Source: a virus
Taxonomy: Duplodnaviria > Heunggongvirae > Uroviricota > Caudoviricetes
DNA: 11,363 nt
IMG/VR virus record: IMGVR_UViG_2563366799_000008
Reading direction: 5' to 3' (one strand)
Shown: positions 1 to 11,363 of the stretch, piece by piece
Layout of the letters: every line of letters begins with the position of its first letter
How positions within the stretch are numbered: the first letter of the stretch is position 1
The notes under the pieces: model-generated
What the model was told of the DNA's origin: nothing
Database searches by the model: none
The model's input: only the letters and a program-made list of their open reading frames with translations
Position numbers and translations under genes: made by a program

Positions 1-742
<742 letters not shown>

Positions 743-831
743 ATGAGACTTCATATTATAACTATAATTATGTAAAAAAGGCTGGTATTTTATACCTTGA
801 GGAAAATAGATAAGAGGAATGAGGTTTGGTT

Positions 832-2223
832 ATGATGAATTATACTGATGAGTCAACTTTTCTTGAAAAGTACAAACCGTTTAGGAAGTTTTGGACAATT
901 TTATCACCTCATTATGTATCTTTAATGCATGCACTTGCCAAAATGATAAGGGGAGGGAATCCAATTCAAGAACTACCTTCCAATGATGAGGATTTTCTTG
1001 CAGAGTATGAAACCTGTCTCAAAAATTGGAAAGACTCACAAAAAATCATATCTTTTGAGATTATTATTCGGCTGAGAGATATAAAAAGATTGGAAACTGA
1101 AAAAAAAGAGCACCATCGAAACAAGGATAAAGAAAATAAAGAAAAGTGTATTGATGAAATAAGTTTAAAAAAATTTGAAATTCTTATTCTTCGCCGTTGT
1201 ATTGACTCAATAATTTGGAGCATTCTTGATGAAGAACACTCTAGTTTGCGGCGTTTACCTATTAATGCAAGCAATGACAATCTATCAGAAGATAACATAA
1301 TTGATTCTATGGTCGCAGCCGATCTTATCAACCAGGACAAACACTCCGTAGCGATTGTCTCTGACATGAGCACATTTGTTCATGTGGGAGATTTAGTCAC
1401 CTTTAATCTACTGGATGGCTTCCAGCTCGTGGAAGTTAAAACAGGTGAAAAGAATAATGAGCTTTATGAAGCTGCTGAATTTTCTGTTATCTCAGAATGT
1501 CCGCACTTTGAAGAAAACTTCATTAACAATATGCCTGATAATGATGTTAAGCAATTTAATCGCATAAAAAGGCAAATCATTCGTGGCATGAATGTTCTGG
1601 AGGCGATTAATACTGGCGAGGGCTTTGACAACTTTCATCAGTCTAAAGTTAAAATCAATGAGATAGATCATCCGTCTGAATTTTATACCCACCGCTTAGT
1701 TAAAATGTGGGAGATTATTCGCGGAGGAAAAAATTGGGCAATTGATACTATTGATGAATGTTTGTTCTTAGGTATGTACCGTGATTCTGAAATGGGCTTT
1801 GTTGCCTTCAATGGATGGATGGATAGTCTCGGTATAAAAAGCCCTGTTGTGAATATAAATGATTCATTCTTTGACCCTTTGTCTCGACCATTTATGAGTT
1901 TGCATCTGCCAACTGAAATGCTCTCCGATCTCATGTCGGGACAAATAATCATCGTCATGTGTTTTGACAATGAACTTTTTTTTCACCGTGCTAACAAAAC
2001 GTACCCGGGTTTATATCTCCTTAGCGATGCAGCAAGAACAAAGCAGCCATTAGAAAATATTCTTCGTGTTGGTTCACAAGGGATAGCTTCTTACGTAGAT
2101 GGGAATACCAGCTTTTTAGGTAATGGTATTGAATCCCGTATCCTTTTCGATCAGCAACGACCCGACAACATTATTGAGTGGAGCTATGCTAGAAGCGATC
2201 TCAAAAAGCAACATGAAGCATAA
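832..2223 (+). CDS. hypothetical protein with a PD-(D/E)xK nuclease-like motif; candidate defence effector
   Basis: 463-aa ORF; track start TTG 826, but ATG 832 is preceded by GAGG at 821-824. About 33% GC. Residues HVGDLVTF...QLVEVK (nt ~1390-1440) fit the D...ExK catalytic signature. Lys/Glu-rich predicted helical stretch at residues ~80-125. No Walker A motif seen. Confidence 0.75.
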   Translation: MMNYTDESTFLEKYKPFRKFWTILSPHYVSLMHALAKMIRGGNPIQELPSNDEDFLAEYETCLKNWKDSQKIISFEIIIRLRDIKRLETEKKEHHRNKDKENKEKCIDEISLKKFEILILRRCIDSIIWSILDEEHSSLRRLPINASNDNLSEDNIIDSMVAADLINQDKHSVAIVSDMSTFVHVGDLVTFNLLDGFQLVEVKTGEKNNELYEAAEFSVISECPHFEENFINNMPDNDVKQFNRIKRQIIRGMNVLEAINTGEGFDNFHQSKVKINEIDHPSEFYTHRLVKMWEIIRGGKNWAIDTIDECLFLGMYRDSEMGFVAFNGWMDSLGIKSPVVNINDSFFDPLSRPFMSLHLPTEMLSDLMSGQIIIVMCFDNELFFHRANKTYPGLYLLSDAARTKQPLENILRVGSQGIASYVDGNTSFLGNGIESRILFDQQRPDNIIEWSYARSDLKKQHEA

Positions 2224-2485
2224 GCCGTTGGATGGGATTTCCCATGAATTGCCATGGATAATCTAGACACTTCGAGCCGTTGATAATGTTGATTTTCGTA
2301 TTCTGTCGGTGGAGTATCCCGAAAGGTATAGAGCAAAACCTGGAGAAAACACACAGCATCCCATTTTAATCTTTAACTCTGACCTTCCATAATGTCCGCT
2401 GTTGGCACAAAGCGGACAACCACGCTAGCTCTACCCTGTGCCACAAAATGTCAATTTGCATCTGAACTAATGCACTTTAATCTCG

Positions 2486-2908
2486 TCACTTCAATAAATA
2501 CCGAACATCCCCCTGATAAAACGACAATATGCGCTGCATAACTTCGCTTTTACGACACTCAGTACAAATCATATTATGACGCCTGTCGTAACGACGTATT
2601 TCTCCATCAGGTAATGACCAGATAAGGTCCGGATCAACCGCAGATGGTTTCTTCAGCTTTGCCCTTGAGAGCTTTTTACGGGCATTTTGCCAGTCCTTAC
2701 GCGCCTGTTCAGACGGGAATAACCCGTAACCAGAGTTGTATACATCGCCACTGGCAACCAGCTCTCTGGCCAGAACGTTCATCAGATATTTTGTTGCCCC
2801 AGTTTTAGTTTCCAGTTGTCTTAACGTCTCGCGCCCACTCTGGCGTACGAGTTCAACAACCTGCCCTTTAATTTTTTCCCGCTCTTCTTGTGTAAAAACT
2901 TTTGCCAC
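2486..2908 (-). CDS. hypothetical protein, 140 aa, last gene of the rightward early operon
   Basis: GTG start at 2908 with AGGAGGG immediately upstream on the - strand (short spacer). Lys/Arg-rich C-terminal half. Codirectional with and just downstream of the O-like gene. No family recognised. Confidence 0.55.
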   Translation of the reverse strand: MAKVFTQEEREKIKGQVVELVRQSGRETLRQLETKTGATKYLMNVLARELVASGDVYNSGYGLFPSEQARKDWQNARKKLSRAKLKKPSAVDPDLIWSLPDGEIRRYDRRHNMICTECRKSEVMQRILSFYQGDVRYLLK

Positions 2909-2948
2909 AAGCCCTCCTGAAAATTACCTCATGACCAGAAATTAACAC

Positions 2949-4019
2949 TTACCCCCTGAAGCCCGGCGGAATTTCGTTATCCGGTTCAGAAATATGATTC
3001 ACACAACGCTGGTTGTTCGTGCCGCTTACCGGGAGCAACCAGGGGTTCTCAAAATTCCGGTCCGGTCCAAAAAACGTCGTCGCTCGCTGAACAAATTCCG
3101 TTCCCGTTTTCCCGGTAGCCGCCAAGTATCTTGCGTAACGCCTCACGCCATCCAGCATGGCCTCTGGTGGCACCCCCTCGCGTAATCTGGCCTTCCAGGC
3201 ACTGAAAGCGGATTTCTTCGGGTTTGCTCCGGCACGCAACGGGTACTCCCGCCAGACCTGTTCGAACACATCCGGATAATCCACTCGTCCCACAGACTGC
3301 CCGGTGTTTTCCGGGACTACCCGATCGGCTTCCCGCTGAATGGCGGAATCGGCTTCGGGCTGCTGCAGTTGGTGTGATTGCTCCGGCCTTGCGGTCATCA
3401 CCTGCTGCACAGCGCCCGAATCGGCTTTCAGCGCATACGCTGAATCGGCTTCCGGTGTCGTGCCTGCTGGCTGACCAAGATTGACGGTCTGAACATCCCC
3501 TGCCTGGTTCGTGGCGTTTTTTACGCCATGGACCATAGTGTTTTGATCTTCTTGATCTGTATCTTTATCTGTATCTTTATCTTTCGTGACTCGTCGTGAC
3601 ATGTGCGTGACATTTCGTGACGCGCCGTGACAATCGCCATTTTGTTCCCGCTTTCTTTCCCTCTCTCGCTGCGCCCTCTTGCGCTCTGCAGGAGATTTTG
3701 CGGTTTGCGAAATATTGCCGTTGTCCTCTTTAAGCACCTGGCGTTTTTCCCATCCAGTGATTAAATCACCATCAAGTACCCGCCCCTGCATCGTCTGCAA
3801 AATTGAATCAATTACCTCTTCTGTCACGTCGAGCGCACTTGCCAAATCTTCTGTCGTGACATCAATGTGACCTCGCGTGACATTTCGTGACGCGCTCACC
3901 AAGAGGTGGATATACACTGCCATCACTGTTGCAATTGGCTGCCCTGACACCCTGGCAATTGTTCGCCACTTAGGGTCATTTGGCATGTCATGCCATAATC
4001 TGAGCCAGGCGTTAGCCAT
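2949..4019 (-). CDS. phage replication initiation protein (lambda O-like / YdaU-like replisome organiser)
   Basis: Track ORF 2949-4025; ATG at 4019 preferred (MANAWLRLWHDMPNDPKW...). C-terminal FEQVWREYPLRAGANPKKSAFSAWKARL resembles prophage replication proteins. Internal iteron clusters and an AT-rich tandem repeat lie within the coding sequence, as in lambda O. Confidence 0.8.
   Translation of the reverse strand: MANAWLRLWHDMPNDPKWRTIARVSGQPIATVMAVYIHLLVSASRNVTRGHIDVTTEDLASALDVTEEVIDSILQTMQGRVLDGDLITGWEKRQVLKEDNGNISQTAKSPAERKRAQRERERKREQNGDCHGASRNVTHMSRRVTKDKDTDKDTDQEDQNTMVHGVKNATNQAGDVQTVNLGQPAGTTPEADSAYALKADSGAVQQVMTARPEQSHQLQQPEADSAIQREADRVVPENTGQSVGRVDYPDVFEQVWREYPLRAGANPKKSAFSAWKARLREGVPPEAMLDGVRRYARYLAATGKTGTEFVQRATTFFGPDRNFENPWLLPVSGTNNQRCVNHISEPDNEIPPGFRG
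3545..3584. repeat. AT-rich tandem hexamer repeat (ATCTKT units) inside the O-like gene
   Basis: atctgt atcttt atctgt atcttt atcttt at 3555-3584, preceded by gatctt. Encodes the KDKDTDKDTD linker on the - strand. Lies directly beside iteron cluster 1. Confidence 0.7.
3585..3631. repeat. iteron cluster 1: five CGTGAC direct repeats at ~10-11 bp spacing (putative replication origin)
   Basis: CGTGAC at 3585, 3595, 3606, 3616 and 3626. The 21-bp block gcgtgacatttcgtgacgcgc (3605-3625) recurs exactly at 3875-3895. Confidence 0.6.
3855..3895. repeat. iteron cluster 2: four (C/T)GTGAC direct repeats at ~10-11 bp spacing
   Basis: CGTGAC at 3855, TGTGAC at 3866, CGTGAC at 3876 and 3886. An inverted copy (gtcacg) sits at 3824-3829. 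Contains the exact 21-bp copy of 3605-3625. Confidence 0.6.
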
Positions 4020-4090
4020 ACTCACCTCTTTTGATACCGAATCTTTTTACTCATAAATTGCCGGAAGTGATCCGGTATGAATATTGCGAG

Positions 4091-4516
4091 TCAATGCACA
4101 GCCACAATATTTCCTGCAGGGCCACCACGATTCATCTGGTTGAAACCAGCGATCGCCACTGCGACAAAATCATCAGCGTCTCTCACCAGTCGTTCCCGCG
4201 TCTCCACTAGTTCCCGAAAATAGGCTGAGCTATGACTGCGCATTCGGGCCACCAGCAGAGGTGGCATTGCTTTTTCGATAGCTGGTAACAACGCCTGAAT
4301 TTTTTTAACCGCATCAGGGGTGTCTTTCTCCACCCAGCGGAAAATTTTCTGAGTATTGCGAGCCAGGGCTTCCGGATGGCTGTCGTCATACAGTTCCGGG
4401 AACGTCATTCCCAGCTCGAAATACGCTTTGGTAATTTTCGCAGCCGGTACTTTTTCGCCGTCCGGATGCGCCCAGGCATTCATCGCCATGCGGATGTGTT
4501 CATGCTTGATTTTCAT
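4091..4516 (-). CDS. YdaT-like protein (Rac-type prophage, cII-position gene)
   Basis: 141 aa, begins MKIKHEHI as I recall for Rac YdaT. GGGAG SD about 6 nt upstream. Its ATG overlaps the stop of the Cro-like gene (ATGA), suggesting translational coupling. Confidence 0.75.
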   Translation of the reverse strand: MKIKHEHIRMAMNAWAHPDGEKVPAAKITKAYFELGMTFPELYDDSHPEALARNTQKIFRWVEKDTPDAVKKIQALLPAIEKAMPPLLVARMRSHSSAYFRELVETRERLVRDADDFVAVAIAGFNQMNRGGPAGNIVAVH

Positions 4517-4767
4517 GAATCAACTCCCATCAGCTTTTTCGTAGTAGTTTTATTCCTGCCAATAGTTAAAATTGCATCGGCAGAAAATAATCCGTTTGAT
4601 GCAAGAGCGATTTTTTCAGCGTAATTTGTTTCGCCGGTATATTCTGTGCGAGGCAATTTTCCGTTATCCATCCATTTATAGATTGCTCTTTGGCTGACAC
4701 CACAAACGTCGGCCACAACAGCAACGCGAACAGTTTTGATTACATCTTCAAGTGTTTTCTGGTTCAT
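4513..4767 (-). CDS. Cro-like HTH regulator (YdaS-like)
   Basis: Track ORF 4513-4839; ATG at 4767 preferred because GAGGG sits just upstream and the product starts MNQKTLEDVIKT. HTH-like segment VADVCGVSQRAIYKWMDNGKLP. Divergent from the repressor gene. Confidence 0.7.
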   Translation of the reverse strand: MNQKTLEDVIKTVRVAVVADVCGVSQRAIYKWMDNGKLPRTEYTGETNYAEKIALASNGLFSADAILTIGRNKTTTKKLMGVDS

Positions 4768-4846
4768 ATCACCCTCACAATGTGAACTTTGAGTACATGC
4801 TATAACAGAACTGACAGTACATTCAAGAGCGAATATCATTGAACTT
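4768..4846. promoter_or_regulatory. divergent immunity promoter/operator region (OR-like)
   Basis: 79-bp gap between divergent cro-like and repressor genes. Direct AGTACAT repeats at 4792-4798 and 4816-4822. + strand candidate: -35 CTGACA 4811-4816, 17-bp spacer, -10 TATCAT 4834-4839, placing the start at or next to the repressor ATG. - strand candidate: -35 TTGAAT, -10 TATAGC (weak). Confidence 0.45.
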
Positions 4847-5266
4847 ATGGTTCATGAAGATAAAGCGCGTAAAGAGTTCGCCAGTAGGCTTGCGCTAGCC
4901 TGTGAAAACGCTGGTTATGAACAACATGGAAGGCAGGCAGAAATTGCCCGTCGAATGAAATTAACACCAAAAGCGGTTAGCAAATGGTTTAATGGCGAAA
5001 CAATTCCTCGCCGGGAGAAATTAAGGGAATTAGCAACACTAATAGGAACAACACCAACCTATCTTTTGGGAGAGGATACAGAAGAAAGTGGACAGGTACG
5101 TTTCTATCAGGAGTTAAATCCAAGACAAAAAATCATCATTGACCTTCTGGACGAGCTCCCTGACAGTGAGACAGATGAACTTTTAAAAACTCTTGAAGAG
5201 AAAAAACAGAAGTACAATGCAATTTACGAAGAGTTAGCACGAAAGAAAAAACAAAAAGCCTCTTAA
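4847..5266 (+). CDS. prophage repressor, XRE-family HTH (DicA/RacR-like CI analogue)
   Basis: 139 aa. N-terminal HTH (AEIARRMKLTPKAVSKWFNGETIP) and acidic/basic helical C-terminus. Divergent from the cro-like gene. No SD upstream, consistent with a leaderless transcript. Confidence 0.85.
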   Translation: MVHEDKARKEFASRLALACENAGYEQHGRQAEIARRMKLTPKAVSKWFNGETIPRREKLRELATLIGTTPTYLLGEDTEESGQVRFYQELNPRQKIIIDLLDELPDSETDELLKTLEEKKQKYNAIYEELARKKKQKAS

Positions 5267-5276
5267 ACCAGCATAA

Positions 5277-5314
5277 ATCCGGTAGCGCCTTCCTCCGGGT
5301 TTGTGCTTCACTTT
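5277..5314 (+). terminator. weak candidate intrinsic terminator after the repressor gene
   Basis: Arms ATCCGG (5277-5282) and CCGGGT (5295-5300) with a 12-nt loop, followed by T-rich TTGTGCTTCACTTT. Stem is short with one G-U pair. Confidence 0.25.
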
Positions 5315-5325
5315 ATCCCATCTCA

Positions 5326-5390
5326 TTTTTTTACATACAAAATGTACTAATAGTACTTTACAACAATGAACGCAAAGTACGTTATATGCC
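5326..5390. promoter_or_regulatory. OL/pL-like operator-promoter region for the leftward early operon
   Basis: Near-palindrome ATGTACTAATAGTACTT (5342-5358) and AGTAC at 5376-5380 share the AGTACAT half-site found between cro and repressor. TTTACA hexamers at 5330 and 5357. No clean -10 identified. Confidence 0.3.
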
Positions 5391-5563
5391 TGCCACCCAC
5401 CCCGCCCCACAGAATGCAGGGCAATACTTCGAGTTACCAGGCAGTGGTCAGGGGTTAAGTAGCCAGCCCGAGGCGTAAGAACATGACGGCAGGGTTCAAC
5501 TTTAATAACTATGCAGCAGGTTTTTGTTCCGCTACCCCGGCGTTAAGGGGAAATGAGGTCAGC

Positions 5564-5719
5564 ATGGATACTATCGATCTTGGCAACAGCGAATCTCCGG
5601 TATGTGGCGTGTTCCCCAACCAGGACGGTACGTTCACCGCGATGACGTATACCAAAAGCAAAACGTTTAAAACCGAAAATGGTGCCCGTCGCTGGCTGGA
5701 AAGAAACTCAGGTGAGTGA
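5564..5719 (+). CDS. small early-left protein, YdfA/YdaF-like (DUF1391-type)
   Basis: 51-aa product MDTIDLGNSESPVCGVFPNQDGTF... from the internal ATG at 5564 with GAGG 5 nt upstream. Size and position after the repressor match ydfA in Qin. Stop sits 1 nt before the next ATG. Confidence 0.65.
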   Translation: MDTIDLGNSESPVCGVFPNQDGTFTAMTYTKSKTFKTENGARRWLERNSGE

Positions 5720-5720
5720 T

Positions 5721-6296
5721 ATGGATTTCGACACAATCATGGAAAAGGCTTACGAAGAATACTTCGAAGGTCTTGCCGAAGGCGAAGAAGCTCTCAGCTT
5801 CAGTGAGTTTAAACAGGCACTCAGAATAAGAATGTGCTCTCACAATGACGCGGAGCACAAATATGAGAAGCAAAATCAGACCGCAGAAAATTTTGTTCTG
5901 GAACCCGGAGAAACGCTTTTCAAAATTCCCGTTACGTGCCCCATTTGCGGTTTTACATCAGAAGAACTTGACGACTCCTGTAACAATCAGGAAACAACCA
6001 AGTATGTCGAAGATGATACCGAGTGCGCACGAAGAACGATTATATCCACGAGTCCAAACTCCAGGACCAATAAATCTCACTTTGAGAGGGTGATTAATCC
6101 ACTCCCCCAAACCAATAAAAAAGATGCCGGAGGACAAAAAACCCAATGGAACAACGGGATATCTGTCAAAAAAAGACGTTCCATTAAAGACAAACAACGC
6201 AGCGCCAACAACTGTAAGCGCTTTATACCAGTAATCAATTTTCATGTTCTTAAGCGGATTTATTGGTGGTTGCGACATTGCTTAATGAATCCTTAA
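5721..6296 (+). CDS. hypothetical acidic protein with CPICGF Cys motif (YdfB/YdfC-position); 3' extent uncertain
   Basis: ATG 5721 with AGGTGA SD. The first ~100 aa look protein-like (acidic, CxxC...C...C). The C-terminal half is a basic low-complexity sequence that fully overlaps a hydrophobic - strand ORF. Confidence 0.4.
   Translation: MDFDTIMEKAYEEYFEGLAEGEEALSFSEFKQALRIRMCSHNDAEHKYEKQNQTAENFVLEPGETLFKIPVTCPICGFTSEELDDSCNNQETTKYVEDDTECARRTIISTSPNSRTNKSHFERVINPLPQTNKKDAGGQKTQWNNGISVKKRRSIKDKQRSANNCKRFIPVINFHVLKRIYWWLRHCLMNP
5958..6278 (-). CDS. possible small membrane protein, antisense to the early-left operon (SieB-like position)
   Basis: 106 aa with three hydrophobic helix-like segments. 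ATG with AAGGA about 11 nt upstream and an in-frame stop directly 5' of it. Opposite orientation mirrors sieB in Rac. Could instead be a shadow of the + strand ORF. Confidence 0.35.
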   Translation of the reverse strand: MSQPPINPLKNMKIDYWYKALTVVGAALFVFNGTSFFDRYPVVPLGFLSSGIFFIGLGEWINHPLKVRFIGPGVWTRGYNRSSCALGIIFDILGCFLIVTGVVKFF

Positions 6297-6555
6297 AACT
6301 GTGGTGATTTTAAGGATACCACCTCGCCTGACGTGGTTAAAAGCAGGCACACAACACGAAAGCGCACGGCGAAGTTCGTCTCACTGTACGGTGTCGTTAA
6401 ATTTAATTCGACCGTGCGCTTCCGGTTGTGGCAACCCGCGAAATGGCGCGGCGGTAAGTATGGCGGGGTTATTCCTTCCCCGTTGAGGACACCGAGTTGT
6501 CAGGTTGACCATACGCTTAAGTGACAACCCCGCTGCAACGCCCTCTGTTATCAAT

Positions 6556-6613
6556 TTTCTGGTGACGTTTGGCGGTATCAGTTTTACTCCGTGACTGCTC
6601 TGCCGCCGTTTTT
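6556..6613 (+). ncRNA. dicF: DicF small regulatory RNA (ftsZ-targeting, Hfq-dependent) with 3' T-tract
   Basis: tttctggtgacgtttggcggtatcagttttactccgtgactgctctgccgcc followed by gttttt matches the ~53-nt DicF sequence as I remember it. Lies about 170 bp upstream of dicB, as in Qin. Confidence 0.8.
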
Positions 6614-6782
6614 AAAGTGAATTTTGTGATGCGGTGAATGCGGCTAAGCGCACGCGGAACAGTTAAAACCAAAAACAGTGTTATGGGTGGATTCTCTGTA
6701 TCCGGCGTTAATTGTTAACTGGTTAACGTCACCTGGAGGCACCAGGCACTGCATCACAAAATTCATTGTTGAGGACGCGATA

Positions 6783-6971
6783 ATGAAAACGTTATTACCA
6801 AACGTTAATACGTCTGAAGGTTGTTTTGAAATTGGTGTCACTATCAGTAACCCTGTATTTACTGAAGATGCCATTAACAAGAGAAAACACGAACGGGAGC
6901 TATTAAATAAAATATGCATTCTTTCAATGTTGGCCCGTTTACGTCCGATACAAAAAGGATGCTGGCAATGA
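6783..6971 (+). CDS. dicB: cell-division inhibitor DicB (acts through MinC)
   Basis: 62-aa product MKTLLPNVNTSEGCFEIGVTISNPVFTEDAINKRK...KGCWQ is near-identical to K-12 DicB as I recall it. GAGGA SD 7 nt upstream. Track ORF 6678-6971 is an upstream extension. Confidence 0.85.
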   Translation: MKTLLPNVNTSEGCFEIGVTISNPVFTEDAINKRKHERELLNKICILSMLARLRPIQKGCWQ

Positions 6972-7159
6972 ATACAGCATTTGCACTTGTTCTGACAGTT
7001 TTTCTTGTTTCCGGAGAGCCAGTTGATATTGCAGTCAGTGTTCACAGGACAATGCAGGAGTGTGTGACTGCAGCAACCGAACAGAAAATTCCCGGTAACT
7101 GTTACCCGGTCGATAAAGTTATTCACCAGGATAATATCGAAATCCCGGCAGGTCTTTAA
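6968..7159 (+). CDS. ydfD: YdfD-like small protein with N-terminal hydrophobic segment (lysis-associated in Qin)
   Basis: 63-aa product MNTAFALVLTVFLVSGEPVDIAV... from ATG 6968, with AGGA 9 nt upstream. Start overlaps the dicB stop (ATGA). Directly follows dicB, as ydfD does in Qin. Confidence 0.75.
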   Translation: MNTAFALVLTVFLVSGEPVDIAVSVHRTMQECVTAATEQKIPGNCYPVDKVIHQDNIEIPAGL

Positions 7160-7252
7160 AACAGTTCCGTAATAAATATCCGGTTTCATTCTTATATGCC
7201 AGCAATGGCAGGGATTTGTTCATCCTTAAATCTGTCATGAGGTTAAAACAAA

Positions 7253-9724
7253 ATGAGTAAAGTCTTTATTTGCGCCGCTATTCCTGACGAACTGGCAACA
7301 AGGGAAGAAGGCGCTGTGGCTGTAGCCACAGCCATTGAAGCTGGCGACGAACGCCGTGCTCGAGCAAAATTTCACTGGCAGTTCCTGGAACATTATCCGG
7401 CTGCTCAGGACTGCGCTTATAAATTTATTGTCTGCGAGGATAAACCTGGCATACCCCGCCCTGCCCTCGATTCATGGGATGCTGAATATATGCAGGAAAA
7501 CCGCTGGGATGAGGAGTCTGCTTCTTTTGTCCCGGTTGAGACTGAATCCGATCCGATGAACGTCACTTTTGACAAGCTGGCCCCTGAAGTACAGAACGCT
7601 GTCATGGTTAAGTTCGACACATGTGAAAACATCACCGTTGATATGGTTATTAGCGCACAGGAATTGTTGCAGGAAGACATGGCAACATTCGACGGACATA
7701 TCGTTGAAGCGTTGATGAAAATGCCAGAAGTTAACGCCATGTATCCGGAGCTTAAGTTGCACGCCATTGGGTGGGTTAAGCATAAATGTATTCCTGGTGC
7801 TAAATGGCCCGAAATTCAGGCAGAGATGCGCATCTGGAAAAAACGTCGCGAAGGTGAACGCAAGGAAACCGGAAAATACACGTCTGTTGTTGATCTCGCC
7901 CGCGCCAGAGCCAATCAACAGTACACTGAAAATTCAACAGGAAAAATCAGCCCGGTCATTGCTGCCATTCATCGCGAATACAAGCAGACATGGAAAACAC
8001 TGGATGACGAACTGGCCTACGCTCTCTGGCCTGGTGATGTAGATGCCGGAAACATTGACGGCAGCATCCATCGCTGGGCAAAAAATGAAGTTATCGACAA
8101 CGACCGCGAAGACTGGAAGCGTATCTCGGCATCAATGCGCAAACAGCCTGATGCCCTTCGCTACGACCGCCAGACTATTTTTGGCCTTGTCCGTGAACGT
8201 CCGATCGACATTCACAAAGACCCTGTGGCACTGAACAAATACATTACTGAATACCTGACTACAAAGGGCGTGTTTGAAGATGAAGGAACAAATCAGAGCG
8301 CAACTGATACTCTCTCGTCGCCAGTACCAGAAACTGATGCAGTGGAAACGGCAATTCCAGACAACGAAAAAACCGAATGCAAAGTGGAAGTCGAACCATC
8401 TGTAGAACGTGAGGGGCCGTTCTACTTCCTCTTCACCGACAAGGATGGCGAAAAATACGGTCGCGCAAACAAACTTTCTGGTCTGGATAAGGCGCTGTCT
8501 GCTGGGGCTACTGAAATCACGAAAGAAGAATATTTCGCCCGCAAAAACGGTACATACTCAGGTTCACAACAAAATACTGGTGCATCTGACACGACCGCAC
8601 AACCAGGGTCAGTAAAAGTTACCGCTGACGAAGTAAACAAAATTATGCAGGCAGCCAATATCAGCCAGCCTGACGCCGATGAACTGCTTGCAGTATCACG
8701 TGGTGAATTTGTTGAAGGGATTAGCGACCCGAATGATCCGAAATGGGTTAAGGGGATCCAGACCCGCGATTCTGTGAACCAGAACCAGCAAGAAACGGAA
8801 CAGAACGACCAGAAAGCGGAACAAAACAGCCCAAATACGCAACAAAACGAGCCAGAAACAAAACAACCTGAACCAGTAGTGCAACAGGAACCGGAAAAGA
8901 TCTGCACCGCCTGCGGTCATAGCGGTGGCGGCAACTGCCCTGATTGTGGTGCGGTGATGGGTGACGCAACATACCAGGAAATATTCGATGGAGAGAATCA
9001 GCCTGAAGTTCAGGAAAATGATCCGGAGGAAATGGAAGGCACTGCGCATCAGCACAAGGAGAACACTGGCGGCAATCAGCATCACAATAGCGATAATGAA
9101 ACTGGCGAGACGGCAGATCACTCAATTAAGGTGAACGGTCATCACGAAATCACATCCACCAGCAGGACGTGTGACCATCTAATGATCGACCTTGAAACCA
9201 TGGGAAAAAATCCTGATGCCCCGATCATCTCAATAGGTGCAATATTTTTCGATCCGCAAACCGGAGATATGGGACCGGAATTTAGTAAGACTATCGATCT
9301 GGAAACTGCTGGCGGAGTCATTGATCGGGACACCATTAAATGGTGGCTTAAGCAATCACGCGAAGCGCAATCTGCCATTATGACCGATGAAATCCCGTTA
9401 GATGATGCACTGTTACAATTGCGGGAATTTATCGACGAAAACTCCGGTGAATTTTTTGTTCATGTCTGGGGAAATGGAGCCAACTTCGACAACACGATTT
9501 TGCGCCGTTCATACGAACGGCAGGGAATCCCCTGCCCGTGGCGTTACTACAACGATCGCGATGTACGCACAATCGTTGAGCTGGGGAAAGCCATAGACTT
9601 CGATGCCAGAACGGCTATTCCATTCGAAGGTGAGCGCCATAATGCACTTGATGACGCCCGTTACCAGGCAAAATACGTTTCAGCTATCTGGCAAAAACTG
9701 ATCCCGAGTCAGGCTGATTCTTAA
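7253..9724 (+). CDS. exodeoxyribonuclease VIII-like early protein (YdfE-like) with C-terminal DnaQ-like DEDDh 3'-5' exonuclease domain
   Basis: 823-aa ORF with GAGG SD. C-terminus carries Exo I (IDLETMG, D at nt 9188), Exo II (WGNGANFDNTIL) and Exo III (HNALDDARY) motifs. Middle has a Q/N/E-rich low-complexity linker (~8760-8900) and a CTACGHSGGGNCPDCG zinc-ribbon-like motif (~8910-8960). Confidence 0.9.
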   Translation: MSKVFICAAIPDELATREEGAVAVATAIEAGDERRARAKFHWQFLEHYPAAQDCAYKFIVCEDKPGIPRPALDSWDAEYMQENRWDEESASFVPVETESDPMNVTFDKLAPEVQNAVMVKFDTCENITVDMVISAQELLQEDMATFDGHIVEALMKMPEVNAMYPELKLHAIGWVKHKCIPGAKWPEIQAEMRIWKKRREGERKETGKYTSVVDLARARANQQYTENSTGKISPVIAAIHREYKQTWKTLDDELAYALWPGDVDAGNIDGSIHRWAKNEVIDNDREDWKRISASMRKQPDALRYDRQTIFGLVRERPIDIHKDPVALNKYITEYLTTKGVFEDEGTNQSATDTLSSPVPETDAVETAIPDNEKTECKVEVEPSVEREGPFYFLFTDKDGEKYGRANKLSGLDKALSAGATEITKEEYFARKNGTYSGSQQNTGASDTTAQPGSVKVTADEVNKIMQAANISQPDADELLAVSRGEFVEGISDPNDPKWVKGIQTRDSVNQNQQETEQNDQKAEQNSPNTQQNEPETKQPEPVVQQEPEKICTACGHSGGGNCPDCGAVMGDATYQEIFDGENQPEVQENDPEEMEGTAHQHKENTGGNQHHNSDNETGETADHSIKVNGHHEITSTSRTCDHLMIDLETMGKNPDAPIISIGAIFFDPQTGDMGPEFSKTIDLETAGGVIDRDTIKWWLKQSREAQSAIMTDEIPLDDALLQLREFIDENSGEFFVHVWGNGANFDNTILRRSYERQGIPCPWRYYNDRDVRTIVELGKAIDFDARTAIPFEGERHNALDDARYQAKYVSAIWQKLIPSQADS

Positions 9725-9735
9725 TGTTCAACTGT

Positions 9736-9767
9736 CGCCGGTTGTGACTGGTATTCTGCAACCGGCG
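9736..9767 (+). other. RNA hairpin between exonuclease and excisionase genes (9-bp GC-rich stem, 14-nt loop), no U-tract
   Basis: cgccggttg (9736-9744) pairs with caaccggcg (9759-9767). Followed by ctcgtctgatg, so it is not a canonical intrinsic terminator. Confidence 0.3.
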
Positions 9768-9796
9768 CTCGTCTGATGTAAGAGATAAAGAAATCG

Positions 9797-10048
9797 ATGA
9801 GCGAAGTAATCATGATTGTCTCTCCCGGCAAATGGGTATCCGAAGAGCAGTTAATTGCGCTGAAAGGAATAAAAAAAGGTACGTTAAAAAAGGCCCGGGA
9901 AAAATCGTTTATGGAAGGAAGGGAATATAAGCATGTCGCTCATGACGGTATGCCATGGGATAACAGTCCATGCTTTTACAACCTGGAAGAAATTGATCGC
10001 TGGATTGAGCGCCAGGCATCAGCAAGACCAAGACGTCATCTTACTTGA
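9797..10048 (+). CDS. xis: excisionase-like protein (Xis)
   Basis: 83-aa basic protein immediately upstream of and codirectional with the integrase, with a 34-bp gap. Weak SD. Position and size are typical of lambdoid xis. Confidence 0.65.
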   Translation: MSEVIMIVSPGKWVSEEQLIALKGIKKGTLKKAREKSFMEGREYKHVAHDGMPWDNSPCFYNLEEIDRWIERQASARPRRHLT

Positions 10049-10082
10049 CTAAAAGCCACACTAACTAATGAGAGAAGTTGAA

Positions 10083-11363
10083 ATGAAATATCCGACAGGC
10101 GTGGAAAACCATGGAGGGAAATTACGTATCTGGTTTGTTTATAAAGGCGTAAGAGTCAGGGAAAACCTGGGGGTTCCTGACACAGCAAAAAACAGGCGCG
10201 TTGCAGGTGAGTTACGCGCCTCTGTTTGTTACGCAATAAAAACTGGTGTTTTCGACTATGCAAAACAGTTTCCCTCCTCACGCAATCTGGAAAAATTTGG
10301 TGAGGCCCGACAAGATTTAACCATAAAAGAACTGGCTGAAAAATTTCTGGCACTGAAAGAAACTGAAGTCGCAAAAACATCACTCAACACATACCGTGCC
10401 GTCATCAAAAATATCCTGAGCATAATCGGTGAAAAAAATCTTGCCTCATCGATTAATAAAGAAAAATTACTGGAGGTTCGTAAAGAGCTACTGACTGGAT
10501 ACCAGATCCCCAAAAGTAACTATATTGTTACACAACCAGGGAGATCGGCTGTAACTGTAAATAATTACATGACAAATCTTAACGCCGTGTTCCAGTTTGG
10601 TGTTGATAACGGTTACCTGGCAGATAACCCGTTTAAGGGGATCTCGCCATTAAAGGAATCAAGAACCATTCCGGATCCTCTTTCGCGGGAGGAATTTATC
10701 CGTCTTATCGATGCGTGCAGAAATCAGCAAGCAAAAAATTTATGGTGTGTTTCTGTTTATACTGGCGTTCGCCCTGGTGAGCTGTGTGCACTTGGATGGG
10801 AGGACATAGATCTGAAAAATGGAACAATGATGATCAGGAGAAATTTAGCAAAAGACCGTTTCACGGTACCAAAAACACAGGCGGGAACCAATCGGGTCAT
10901 TCATCTTATTAAGCCAGCAATCGACGCTCTCCGGAGTCAGATGACATTAACGAGACTGAGCAAAGAGCATATCATTGATGTTCACCTCAGAGAGTATGGC
11001 AGAACAGAAAAACAAAAATGCACCTTTGTTTTTCAACCTGAAGTGTCAGCGAGAGTAAAAAATTATGGTGACCATTTTACCGTTGACTCAATAAGGCAGA
11101 TGTGGGACGCAGCGATAAAACGTGCCGGACTCCGCCATCGAAAATCATATCAGTCGAGACATACTTATGCCTGCTGGTCGCTGACAGCTGGTGCTAACCC
11201 GGCATTTATAGCAAACCAGATGGGCCATGCAGATGCGCAAATGGTATTTAAGGTATACGGAAAATGGATGTCTGAAAACAATAATGCACAGGTAGCTTTG
11301 TTAAATACACAGTTAAGCGAGTTTGCCCCAACCATGCCCCATAACGAAGCAATGAAAAATTAA
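10083..11363 (+). CDS. int: phage tyrosine integrase (IntR/lambdoid family)
   Basis: Track ORF starts 10068; ATG 10083 (MKYPTGVENHGGKLRIWF) aligns with the N-terminus of IntR-type integrases. Catalytic-region motifs GVRPGELCALGWEDID and SRHTYACW...GHADAQMVFKVYGKW. Stop is at the window end. Confidence 0.9.
   Translation: MKYPTGVENHGGKLRIWFVYKGVRVRENLGVPDTAKNRRVAGELRASVCYAIKTGVFDYAKQFPSSRNLEKFGEARQDLTIKELAEKFLALKETEVAKTSLNTYRAVIKNILSIIGEKNLASSINKEKLLEVRKELLTGYQIPKSNYIVTQPGRSAVTVNNYMTNLNAVFQFGVDNGYLADNPFKGISPLKESRTIPDPLSREEFIRLIDACRNQQAKNLWCVSVYTGVRPGELCALGWEDIDLKNGTMMIRRNLAKDRFTVPKTQAGTNRVIHLIKPAIDALRSQMTLTRLSKEHIIDVHLREYGRTEKQKCTFVFQPEVSARVKNYGDHFTVDSIRQMWDAAIKRAGLRHRKSYQSRHTYACWSLTAGANPAFIANQMGHADAQMVFKVYGKWMSENNNAQVALLNTQLSEFAPTMPHNEAMKN

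Follow-up and report, generated by a model that had tools for sequence, protein, structure and literature searches.

A plus-strand segment at 6556-7159 of the Caudoviricetes record IMGVR_UViG_2563366799_000008 (11,363 nucleotides, all of which were analysed and which are referred to below as the window) was described in the original prediction as a dicF-dicB-ydfD cluster that manipulates the host, which raises the question of whether the cluster is intact, in what kind of element it lies and whether it serves the host, the phage or both. The dicF-dicB-ydfD module is already known and well studied: in Escherichia coli K-12, DicF pairs with ftsZ, xylR and pykA (PMC5069750), and both DicF and DicB block FtsZ-dependent division (PMC5069750, PMC6832061). 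Nothing found here contradicts the identity of the module. All three elements are present at the predicted positions, and it is highly probable that the region is the intact dicF-dicB-ydfD segment of the early-left (“dicBF”) operon of a Qin-type lambdoid prophage. The module and its immediate flanks consist of the following features.

6350-6430 (arms 6350-6373 and 6407-6430), plus strand: long imperfect hairpin of about 22 bp in the DicF leader, from the MFE fold
6419-6608, plus strand: predicted 190-nt DicF precursor
6556-6608, plus strand: dicF, antisense sRNA of 53 nt (Rfam RF00039)
6609-6613, plus strand: U5 tract that completes the DicF intrinsic terminator, from reading of the sequence
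6609-6782, plus strand: dicF-dicB spacer, forming the dicB leader, with a GAGGA ribosome-binding site and 3 mismatches to K-12
6783-6971, plus strand: dicB, cell-division inhibitor of 62 aa (PF05358, NF049927)
6968-7159, plus strand: ydfD, lysis protein of 63 aa, DUF1482 (PF07358)
7197-7210, plus strand: small GC hairpin with a T-rich run behind it, downstream of ydfD, from a scan for terminator-like sequences

A cmscan search of the whole window, the check that had been proposed for DicF, matched RF00039 at 6557-6608 with 72.5 bits, above the gathering score of 48 (E 8.6e-15, model positions 1-52 of 52), and DicF was the sole Rfam match at gathering thresholds. The segment 6556-6608 is identical to K-12 dicF (NC_000913 1649382-1649434, 53 nt) at 52 of the 53 bases. 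In both the MFE and the centroid structures, the first 15 nucleotides (6556-6570) are unpaired and form a single-stranded 5′ seed, and 6571-6607 forms the terminator hairpin, which was missed by the terminator scan because its apical loop exceeds 8 nt; termination at the position of the U-tract has been described for K-12 DicF (PMC5069750). The duplex predicted by RNAduplex between DicF and positions -29 to +25 of ftsZ has an energy of -38.9 kcal/mol, versus -38.5 kcal/mol for the K-12 allele, with K-12 ftsZ from -60 to +40 as the target, since the ftsZ gene of the host lies outside the window. The RNA thus has the covariance score, the single-stranded 5′ end with a terminator, and the antisense complementarity to ftsZ that define DicF.

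The single difference from K-12 dicF lies at position 6608, which is G in the window and C in K-12. It affects the last base of DicF (C53G), directly before the terminator U-tract, and the alignment to K-12 dicF establishes that it is genuine; the original prediction had noted one differing 3′ base. The hairpin structure is identical in the two alleles, with an MFE of -16.6 kcal/mol for the G allele versus -15.9 kcal/mol for the K-12 allele, and base 53 takes no part in pairing, whether in the Rfam consensus structure or, for either allele, in the predictions of the hairpin and of the ftsZ duplex. An effect of C53G on DicF folding or on pairing with ftsZ was ruled out by these fold and duplex predictions. 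The base is also G in phage Tritos and is C in K-12 and PPompW, and an exact 70-mer carrying the G allele occurs in 872 of the 3956 dicF-bearing E. coli records.

In K-12, DicF is cut from a polycistronic RNA that begins upstream of ydfA; RNase III generates the 5′ end of the 190-nt species, RNase E generates the 53-nt form, and intrinsic termination provides the 3′ end (PMC10448788, PMC5069750), the 190-nt species and its dependence on RNase III being known from that strain (PMC10448788). Counted back from the 3′ end, the expected 5′ end of a 190-nt product in the window is 6608-190+1 = 6419, which falls in the 3′ arm of the leader hairpin and is paired with 6362. The folding model suggests that this hairpin, at 6350-6430, is the RNase III substrate, and by analogy with K-12 the RNase E cut probably lies in the AU-rich AUCAAUUUU stretch before 6556. 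Only two bases differ from K-12 within 6409-6608, namely 6495 and 6608, and the region varies hardly at all between the window, K-12, Tritos and PPompW. In the 5′ arm of the hairpin, positions 6352 and 6367 are C in the window and U in K-12, so that G-C pairs are replaced by G-U pairs in the latter. The determinants of DicF processing have thus been retained, although the sequence just upstream has been exchanged, and processing would be expected to proceed as in K-12.

Downstream of dicF, the original prediction had proposed a BLAST-type comparison for the 62-aa and 63-aa products, and these align with DicB and YdfD, respectively. DicB matches Pfam PF05358 with 126.9 bits (cut-off 27) and NCBIfam NF049927 with 131.8 bits (cut-off 100), in both cases over positions 1-62 of 62. 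It is identical to K-12 DicB at 56 of 62 residues (90%): residues 1-35 are unchanged, and the six substitutions fall at residues 36-61. To be toxic and to bind MinC, DicB needs its N-terminus, including K2 (present here) and L5, whereas a DicB that lacks the last 8 residues is still toxic (PMC4967827). The N-terminal segment with these essential residues is therefore intact in the window, three of the substitutions (residues 55, 56 and 61) lie within the last 8 residues, and L54P lies just outside them. The protein differences from K-12 fall mainly within a ~100-nt patch that covers the 3′ end of dicB and the 5′ end of ydfD and that is a major allele in itself, found with an identity of 99% or more in 1248 records, O157:H7 among them. 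K-12 DicB binds MinC and, via ZipA, dismantles Z rings; it also blocks phage DNA entry through ManYZ as well as sugar transport in a MinC-dependent manner, and protects against lambda about 100-fold (PMC6832061). The block of division through MinC and ZipA and the inhibition of ManYZ would be expected of the present DicB allele.

The dicB leader was also considered as a possible second RNA family around dicF. Under permissive Rfam thresholds, the dicF-dicB spacer together with the first dicB codons (6606-6815) aligns with the full STnc100 model (RF02076, model positions 1-206), a prophage-associated RNA (bioRxiv 10.64898/2026.05.13.724894), at 34.5 bits (E ~4e-6). This candidate was rejected since the score is below the gathering score of 47; K-12, Tritos and PPompW likewise have no match to RF02076 at the gathering level.

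YdfD matches Pfam PF07358 (DUF1482) with 90 bits (cut-off 25); there is no NCBIfam model for this protein. It is full-length, without truncation, has a hydrophobic N-terminus and is identical to K-12 YdfD at 60 of 63 residues (95%), the changes being S3T, V6A and M33V. The dicB stop codon and the ydfD start codon overlap as ATGA, and ydfD is translationally coupled to dicB. K-12 YdfD binds IspG and lyses dividing cells, lysis requires both of its termini, and co-expression of DicB prevents lysis (PMC8835842); IspG-linked lysis may be expected of the present YdfD as well. Northern blots in K-12 have revealed a transcript that ends after ydfD (PMC10448788), and the hairpin at 7197-7210, the sequence of which is identical in K-12 and phage Tritos, is possibly the 3′ end of the transcript running from ydfA to ydfD.

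The functions attributed to the cluster in the original prediction agree with the literature on the K-12 alleles (PMC5069750, PMC6832061, PMC8835842), and at 90-98% identity these alleles would be expected to confer division inhibition, exclusion of ManYZ-dependent phages and IspG-linked lysis. In a lysogen, the local CI-like repressor would hold the operon off. Upon derepression, a polycistronic RNA would be produced from upstream of ydfA; RNase III would cut the long hairpin at about 6419, the terminator at 6571-6613 would fix the 3′ end, and RNase E would trim the RNA to the 53-nt DicF. DicF, together with Hfq, would pair across the ribosome-binding site of ftsZ and thereby block FtsZ synthesis, and would also regulate xylR, pykA and manX. 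Read-through past the DicF terminator would yield DicB and, by translational coupling, YdfD. DicB would bind MinC and bring it to ZipA at midcell, so that Z rings would be dismantled, and would block ManYZ-dependent entry of phage DNA; YdfD would bind IspG and cause lysis in dividing cells, and the division block imposed by DicB would counteract this lysis.

The element in which the module is embedded was defined from the genes on either side, which are as follows.

4513-4767, minus strand: Cro-like HTH regulator, divergent from the repressor gene (RefSeq annotation of the 99.96% identical G3/10 locus)
4847-5266, plus strand: CI/DicA-like HTH repressor of 139 aa, of a different immunity type (match to NF007257 below cut-off)
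5330-5390, plus strand: weak candidate for the operator/promoter of the early-left (dicB-type) operon, from an AGTACAT motif
5564-5719, plus strand: ydfA, first gene of the operon (RefSeq annotation)
5721-5822, plus strand: N-terminal part of ydfB (RefSeq annotation)
5822-6338, no strand assigned: cassette of 517 bp absent from K-12, seen as a gap in the blastn alignment to K-12
5958-6278, minus strand: gene for a three-helix membrane protein of 106 aa, directed against the operon (homologues; open in diverged copies)
7253-9724, plus strand: intact exonuclease of 823 aa (Pfam Rv2179c-like domain, E 4.6e-67)
9797-10048, plus strand: excisionase, xis (RefSeq annotation of G3/10)
10083-11363, plus strand: tyrosine integrase, int (RefSeq annotation of G3/10; 99.1% identical to K-12 intQ)

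Positions 201-11363 of the window are 99.96% identical to a prophage of E. coli G3/10 that adjoins rspB, the chromosomal site occupied by Qin in K-12, and RefSeq labels the identical DNA in G3/10 as dicB and “lysis protein YdfD”. The prophage setting that had been proposed for the cluster is borne out by this adjacency, by the repressor/cro-like pair upstream and, on the downstream side, by genes for an exonuclease, an excisionase and an integrase: the prophage, of which the window forms the early-left arm, is lambdoid, lies at the Qin site and is fuller than Qin of K-12. The G3/10 prophage at rspB is about 48 kb in length and contains lysis, head and tail genes along with several pseudogenes. 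K-12 matches the window by blastn at 5526-5821 (ydfA and the start of ydfB, 96% identity), 6339-8019 (97.5%) and 10204-11363 (intQ, 99%); the second alignment stops at 8019 at an IS2E insertion, and K-12 ydfE is the IS2-truncated remnant of the 823-aa exonuclease. DNA of dicF or dicB is present in approximately 4750 of 5426 complete E. coli genomes. In a PADLOC scan, the sole match was a truncated AbiH at the left edge of the window, and there was no match for DicB, YdfD, the 106-aa membrane protein or a 465-aa protein (826-2223).

The immunity region has the same layout as that of K-12 Qin, but is of a type other than DicA/DicC, with a different specificity. The repressor scores 56.8 bits against the NCBIfam DicA model NF007257 (cut-off 101) and shares 29% identity with K-12 DicA, and no alignment was found between the Cro-like protein and K-12 DicC. 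The motif AGTACAT occurs three times in the window, at 4792 and 4816 in the cro/repressor intergenic region and, inverted, within GTACT-AAT-AGTAC (5342-5348), and is confined to the intergenic regions on either side of the repressor gene. This distribution would fit shared operators, with weak statistics (0.87 copies expected by chance; 12 of 200 shuffles reach 3). A consensus scan found no sigma-70 promoter between the repressor gene and ydfA, and the promoter and operators of the operon differ from those of K-12.

The 517-bp cassette takes the place of the C-terminus of ydfB and of ydfC. It is present in 806 of the 5426 complete E. coli genomes (~15%), and the arrangement is found at an identity of at least 99% in 787 genomes. 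RefSeq records at the cassette contain nothing beyond “partial ydfB” or a 191-aa plus-strand ORF, and the membrane-protein gene is often unannotated. The plus-strand ORF, which is 191 or 205 aa in length and fused to ydfB, is listed as a “hypothetical protein” in some RefSeq records and matches phrog_35040. It was rejected as the true gene of the cassette, as only the minus-strand ORF has distant full-length homologues, and it is further disfavoured by loci L022 and L006, in which it is broken and the minus-strand ORF is intact. Full-length homologues of the 106-aa protein, with 34-58% identity, occur in Yersinia, Herminiimonas, Reinekea and many metagenomes; the conserved motifs are DYWYKA and GLGEWINHPL, and there are three hydrophobic helices. 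The AlphaFold2 model of the protein has a pLDDT of 86.8, and a Foldseek search of this model against PDB and BFVD found no significant match. Approximately 30 nt just 3′ of the stop codon of the gene are conserved even in the Yersinia copy.

In enterobacterial prophages, the 106-aa gene always lies beside a cI-like repressor and points against the early-left operon, and the more distant homologues occur in other contexts. The idea that the cassette always travels with one particular repressor was rejected, given that the 139-aa repressor of L022 is unrelated. In the window, about 400 nt lie between the end of the gene and the predicted RNase III hairpin of the DicF precursor downstream, and a cassette with a convergent gene could change the amounts of DicF and DicB. 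The fuller proposal that the 106-aa gene is expressed from its own promoter in the lysogen as a new superinfection-exclusion or defence factor and, at the same time, that convergent transcription or antisense RNA gates the output of DicF, DicB and YdfD is unlikely in this joint form; a role in lysogen exclusion and interference with dicBF are speculative.

Three other readings of the locus were weighed against a host-manipulation cluster that is intact and equivalent to that of K-12. One accepts the same identity but holds that the module chiefly serves the early lytic phase of an active temperate phage and is not a host-serving cluster of a cryptic prophage; as with lambda kil or Rac kilR, it would briefly block division, and would rewire metabolism, upon induction or infection. 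It is a real possibility, with a chance that falls somewhat short of even. The module sits in a repressor-controlled early-left operon between the immunity region and exo-xis-int, the same slot is occupied by KilR in related prophages, and the G3/10 prophage, at ~48 kb, retains head and tail genes, although its several pseudogenes mean that it may be defective. DicB homologues are now found in 20 phage records, including Tritos, HannyBb, mEp460_ev081 and PhiR42_1, with dicF annotated in Tritos, whereas in 2016 no phage genome with dicB or dicF was found (PMC5069750); the presence of the module in sequenced phage genomes argues that it also, or mainly, serves the early lytic programme of the phage. 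On the other hand, K-12 DicF accumulates in stationary phase and its promoter is stochastically on in lysogens (PMC10448788), DicB affords roughly 100-fold protection against lambda (PMC6832061), and host and phage roles are not exclusive. The dicBF operon is under repressor control, exerted by DicA in K-12 (PMC10448788), and any benefit to the lysogen therefore requires derepression. The module is best seen as an early-left phage function from which lysogens can profit too, which qualifies the emphasis of the original prediction without contradicting it.

The other two readings question whether the module still works as it does in K-12. That C53G in DicF or the C-terminal variant of DicB makes the product functionally unlike its K-12 counterpart, through termination, Hfq binding, target range or MinC binding, is very unlikely: C53G adjoins the terminator U-tract and makes the fold slightly more stable, and the DicB substitutions are grouped in one part of the protein, but base 53 forms no pair in either the Rfam consensus or the ftsZ duplex, the MFE structure is the same, the residues of DicB up to 35 match K-12 and its last 8 are dispensable (PMC4967827), and the variant alleles are widespread (872 and 1248 records), the G allele extending to phage Tritos. 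Both sets of changes are most likely neutral, common natural alleles. Rearrangement upstream might instead have left the module as a silent or decaying remnant that is no longer expressed, as ydfC has given way to the cassette, which also cuts ydfB short and places a gene on the opposite strand between the promoter and dicF. Such decay is very unlikely in view of the three intact genes, the preserved processing hairpin, terminator and ribosome-binding sites, the near-identity of the cassette arrangement across 787 genomes, and the exonuclease, xis and int genes downstream, which, unlike those of K-12, are intact.

The reading of the locus as an intact dicBF segment places it within a textbook case of prophage genes that reprogramme the host, in which FtsZ is shut down both by an sRNA and by a small protein, which in addition prevents the entry of ManYZ-dependent phages, and isoprenoid synthesis is the target of a coupled lysis protein. 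A further copy of the module is nothing new in kind; its occurrence in a much less decayed Qin-type element and in sequenced phages updates the earlier view that only defective prophages have retained it. Upstream of dicF, the transcript has a modular make-up, and a common variant that carries a membrane-protein gene on the opposite strand could matter for the expression of DicF and DicB.

Compared with the dicBF operon of K-12 Qin (ydfABC-dicF-dicB-ydfDE), the window has the same gene order dicF-dicB-ydfD at the same site by rspB, with 97.5% DNA identity over 6339-8019, and the two share their leader hairpin, terminator and ATGA coupling. The two differ in the immunity region, where the window has a repressor 29% identical to DicA and a Cro-like protein unrelated to DicC; in the 517-bp cassette, which stands in place of the ydfB C-terminus and ydfC; in the genes downstream, where ydfE and intQ are broken by IS2 in K-12, whereas the exonuclease, xis and integrase are intact in the window; and in DicF C53G and the ~100-nt divergent patch at the dicB 3′/ydfD 5′ junction. 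Phage Tritos (OV696610) is 96.5% identical over 74% of the window and shares with it the repressor, the replication genes, dicF (G allele), dicB, ydfD, the exonuclease, xis and int, but has K-12-like ydfB and ydfC without the cassette and a DicB C-terminus of the K-12 type; in phage mEp460_ev081, DicB is 96.8% identical to that of the window. Lambda Kil and Rac KilR differ from the DicB system in that their sequences are unrelated to it and they have neither an sRNA partner nor a lysis protein of the YdfD type, but they occupy the same early-left slot and act on the same target pathway, the assembly of the FtsZ ring, lambda Kil doing so in a ZipA-dependent manner (PMC3961180), and in loci L021 and L022 KilR is found at the equivalent position, beside the same 106-aa membrane-protein gene.

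Upstream of dicF, the Qin-type early-left operon dicBF contains a cassette that is not present in K-12 Qin, the reference cryptic prophage, and that encodes a small membrane protein:

5822-6338: cassette standing in place of the ydfB C-terminus and ydfC
5958-6278, minus strand, inside the cassette: gene for a 106-aa membrane protein

The cassette was found in 806 of 5426 E. coli genomes. Its product is a conserved three-helix protein encoded in the direction opposing the dicBF operon; the gene is without annotation in the RefSeq record of E. coli G3/10, whose prophage is nearly identical to the window, and in other records an overlapping plus-strand ORF is called instead. Searches of Pfam and PADLOC and a structure comparison gave no match for the protein, and distant homologues were identified in Yersinia, Herminiimonas and Reinekea. 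In two other Escherichia prophages (L021 and L022), the same gene is flanked by a cI-like repressor gene and an antirepressor-like gene, with KilR and RecE coming next. The membrane-protein gene therefore moves from one immunity region to another, regardless of which division inhibitor, DicF/DicB or KilR, lies downstream.

Directly 3′ of the stop codon of this gene, a stretch of ~30 nt (~5925-5955) is kept even in the Yersinia copy, the protein of which is merely 51% identical. Translated on the plus strand, it reads IPxxCPICGF; the stretch could act as a terminator, have a regulatory role, or else encode a short peptide on that strand.

Across the window, the motif AGTACAT is confined to two places: the cro/repressor intergenic region, which contains two copies (4792-4822), and a site downstream of the repressor gene, where a third copy is inverted within GTACT-AAT-AGTAC (5342-5358). 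These sites are candidates for the OR- and OL-type operators belonging to the prophage's immunity type. The -10 element of the predicted repressor promoter ends at 4839, just 8 nt ahead of the ATG at 4847, a proximity which hints that the repressor mRNA is nearly leaderless, as is that of lambda cI from PRM.

Beyond the prophage replication genes, the left end carries two genes that may form a defence island:

1-742, plus strand: 3′ portion of an abortive-infection gene of the AbiH family (PADLOC AbiH, E 2e-18)
826-2223, plus strand: 465-aa hypothetical protein without a family match

Positions 1-200 of the window have no match in G3/10.

Two further features lie on either side of dicF and dicB:

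6350-6430, plus strand: hairpin of ~22 bp in the DicF leader
7253-9724, plus strand: 823-aa "exonuclease VIII"-type protein

The spacer between dicF and dicB, together with the first dicB codons (6606-6815, plus strand), aligned over the full length of the Rfam STnc100 model but scored below its threshold (34.5 bits versus 47, E about 4e-6), a sequence similarity which suggests that the dicB leader and this prophage sRNA family are distantly related. The 823-aa protein carries not the RecE nuclease domain but a C-terminal DEDDh Rv2179c-like 3′-5′ exonuclease domain (E 4.6e-67); its gene is intact in the window, whereas K-12 ydfE is its N-terminal, IS2-truncated remnant. The leader hairpin includes the expected RNase III-generated 5′ end (~6419) of the 190-nt DicF precursor. 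Compared with K-12, Escherichia phage Tritos and PPompW, its apical loop (6374-6406) is unlike any of the three, and its arms are conserved or show G-C to G-U changes.
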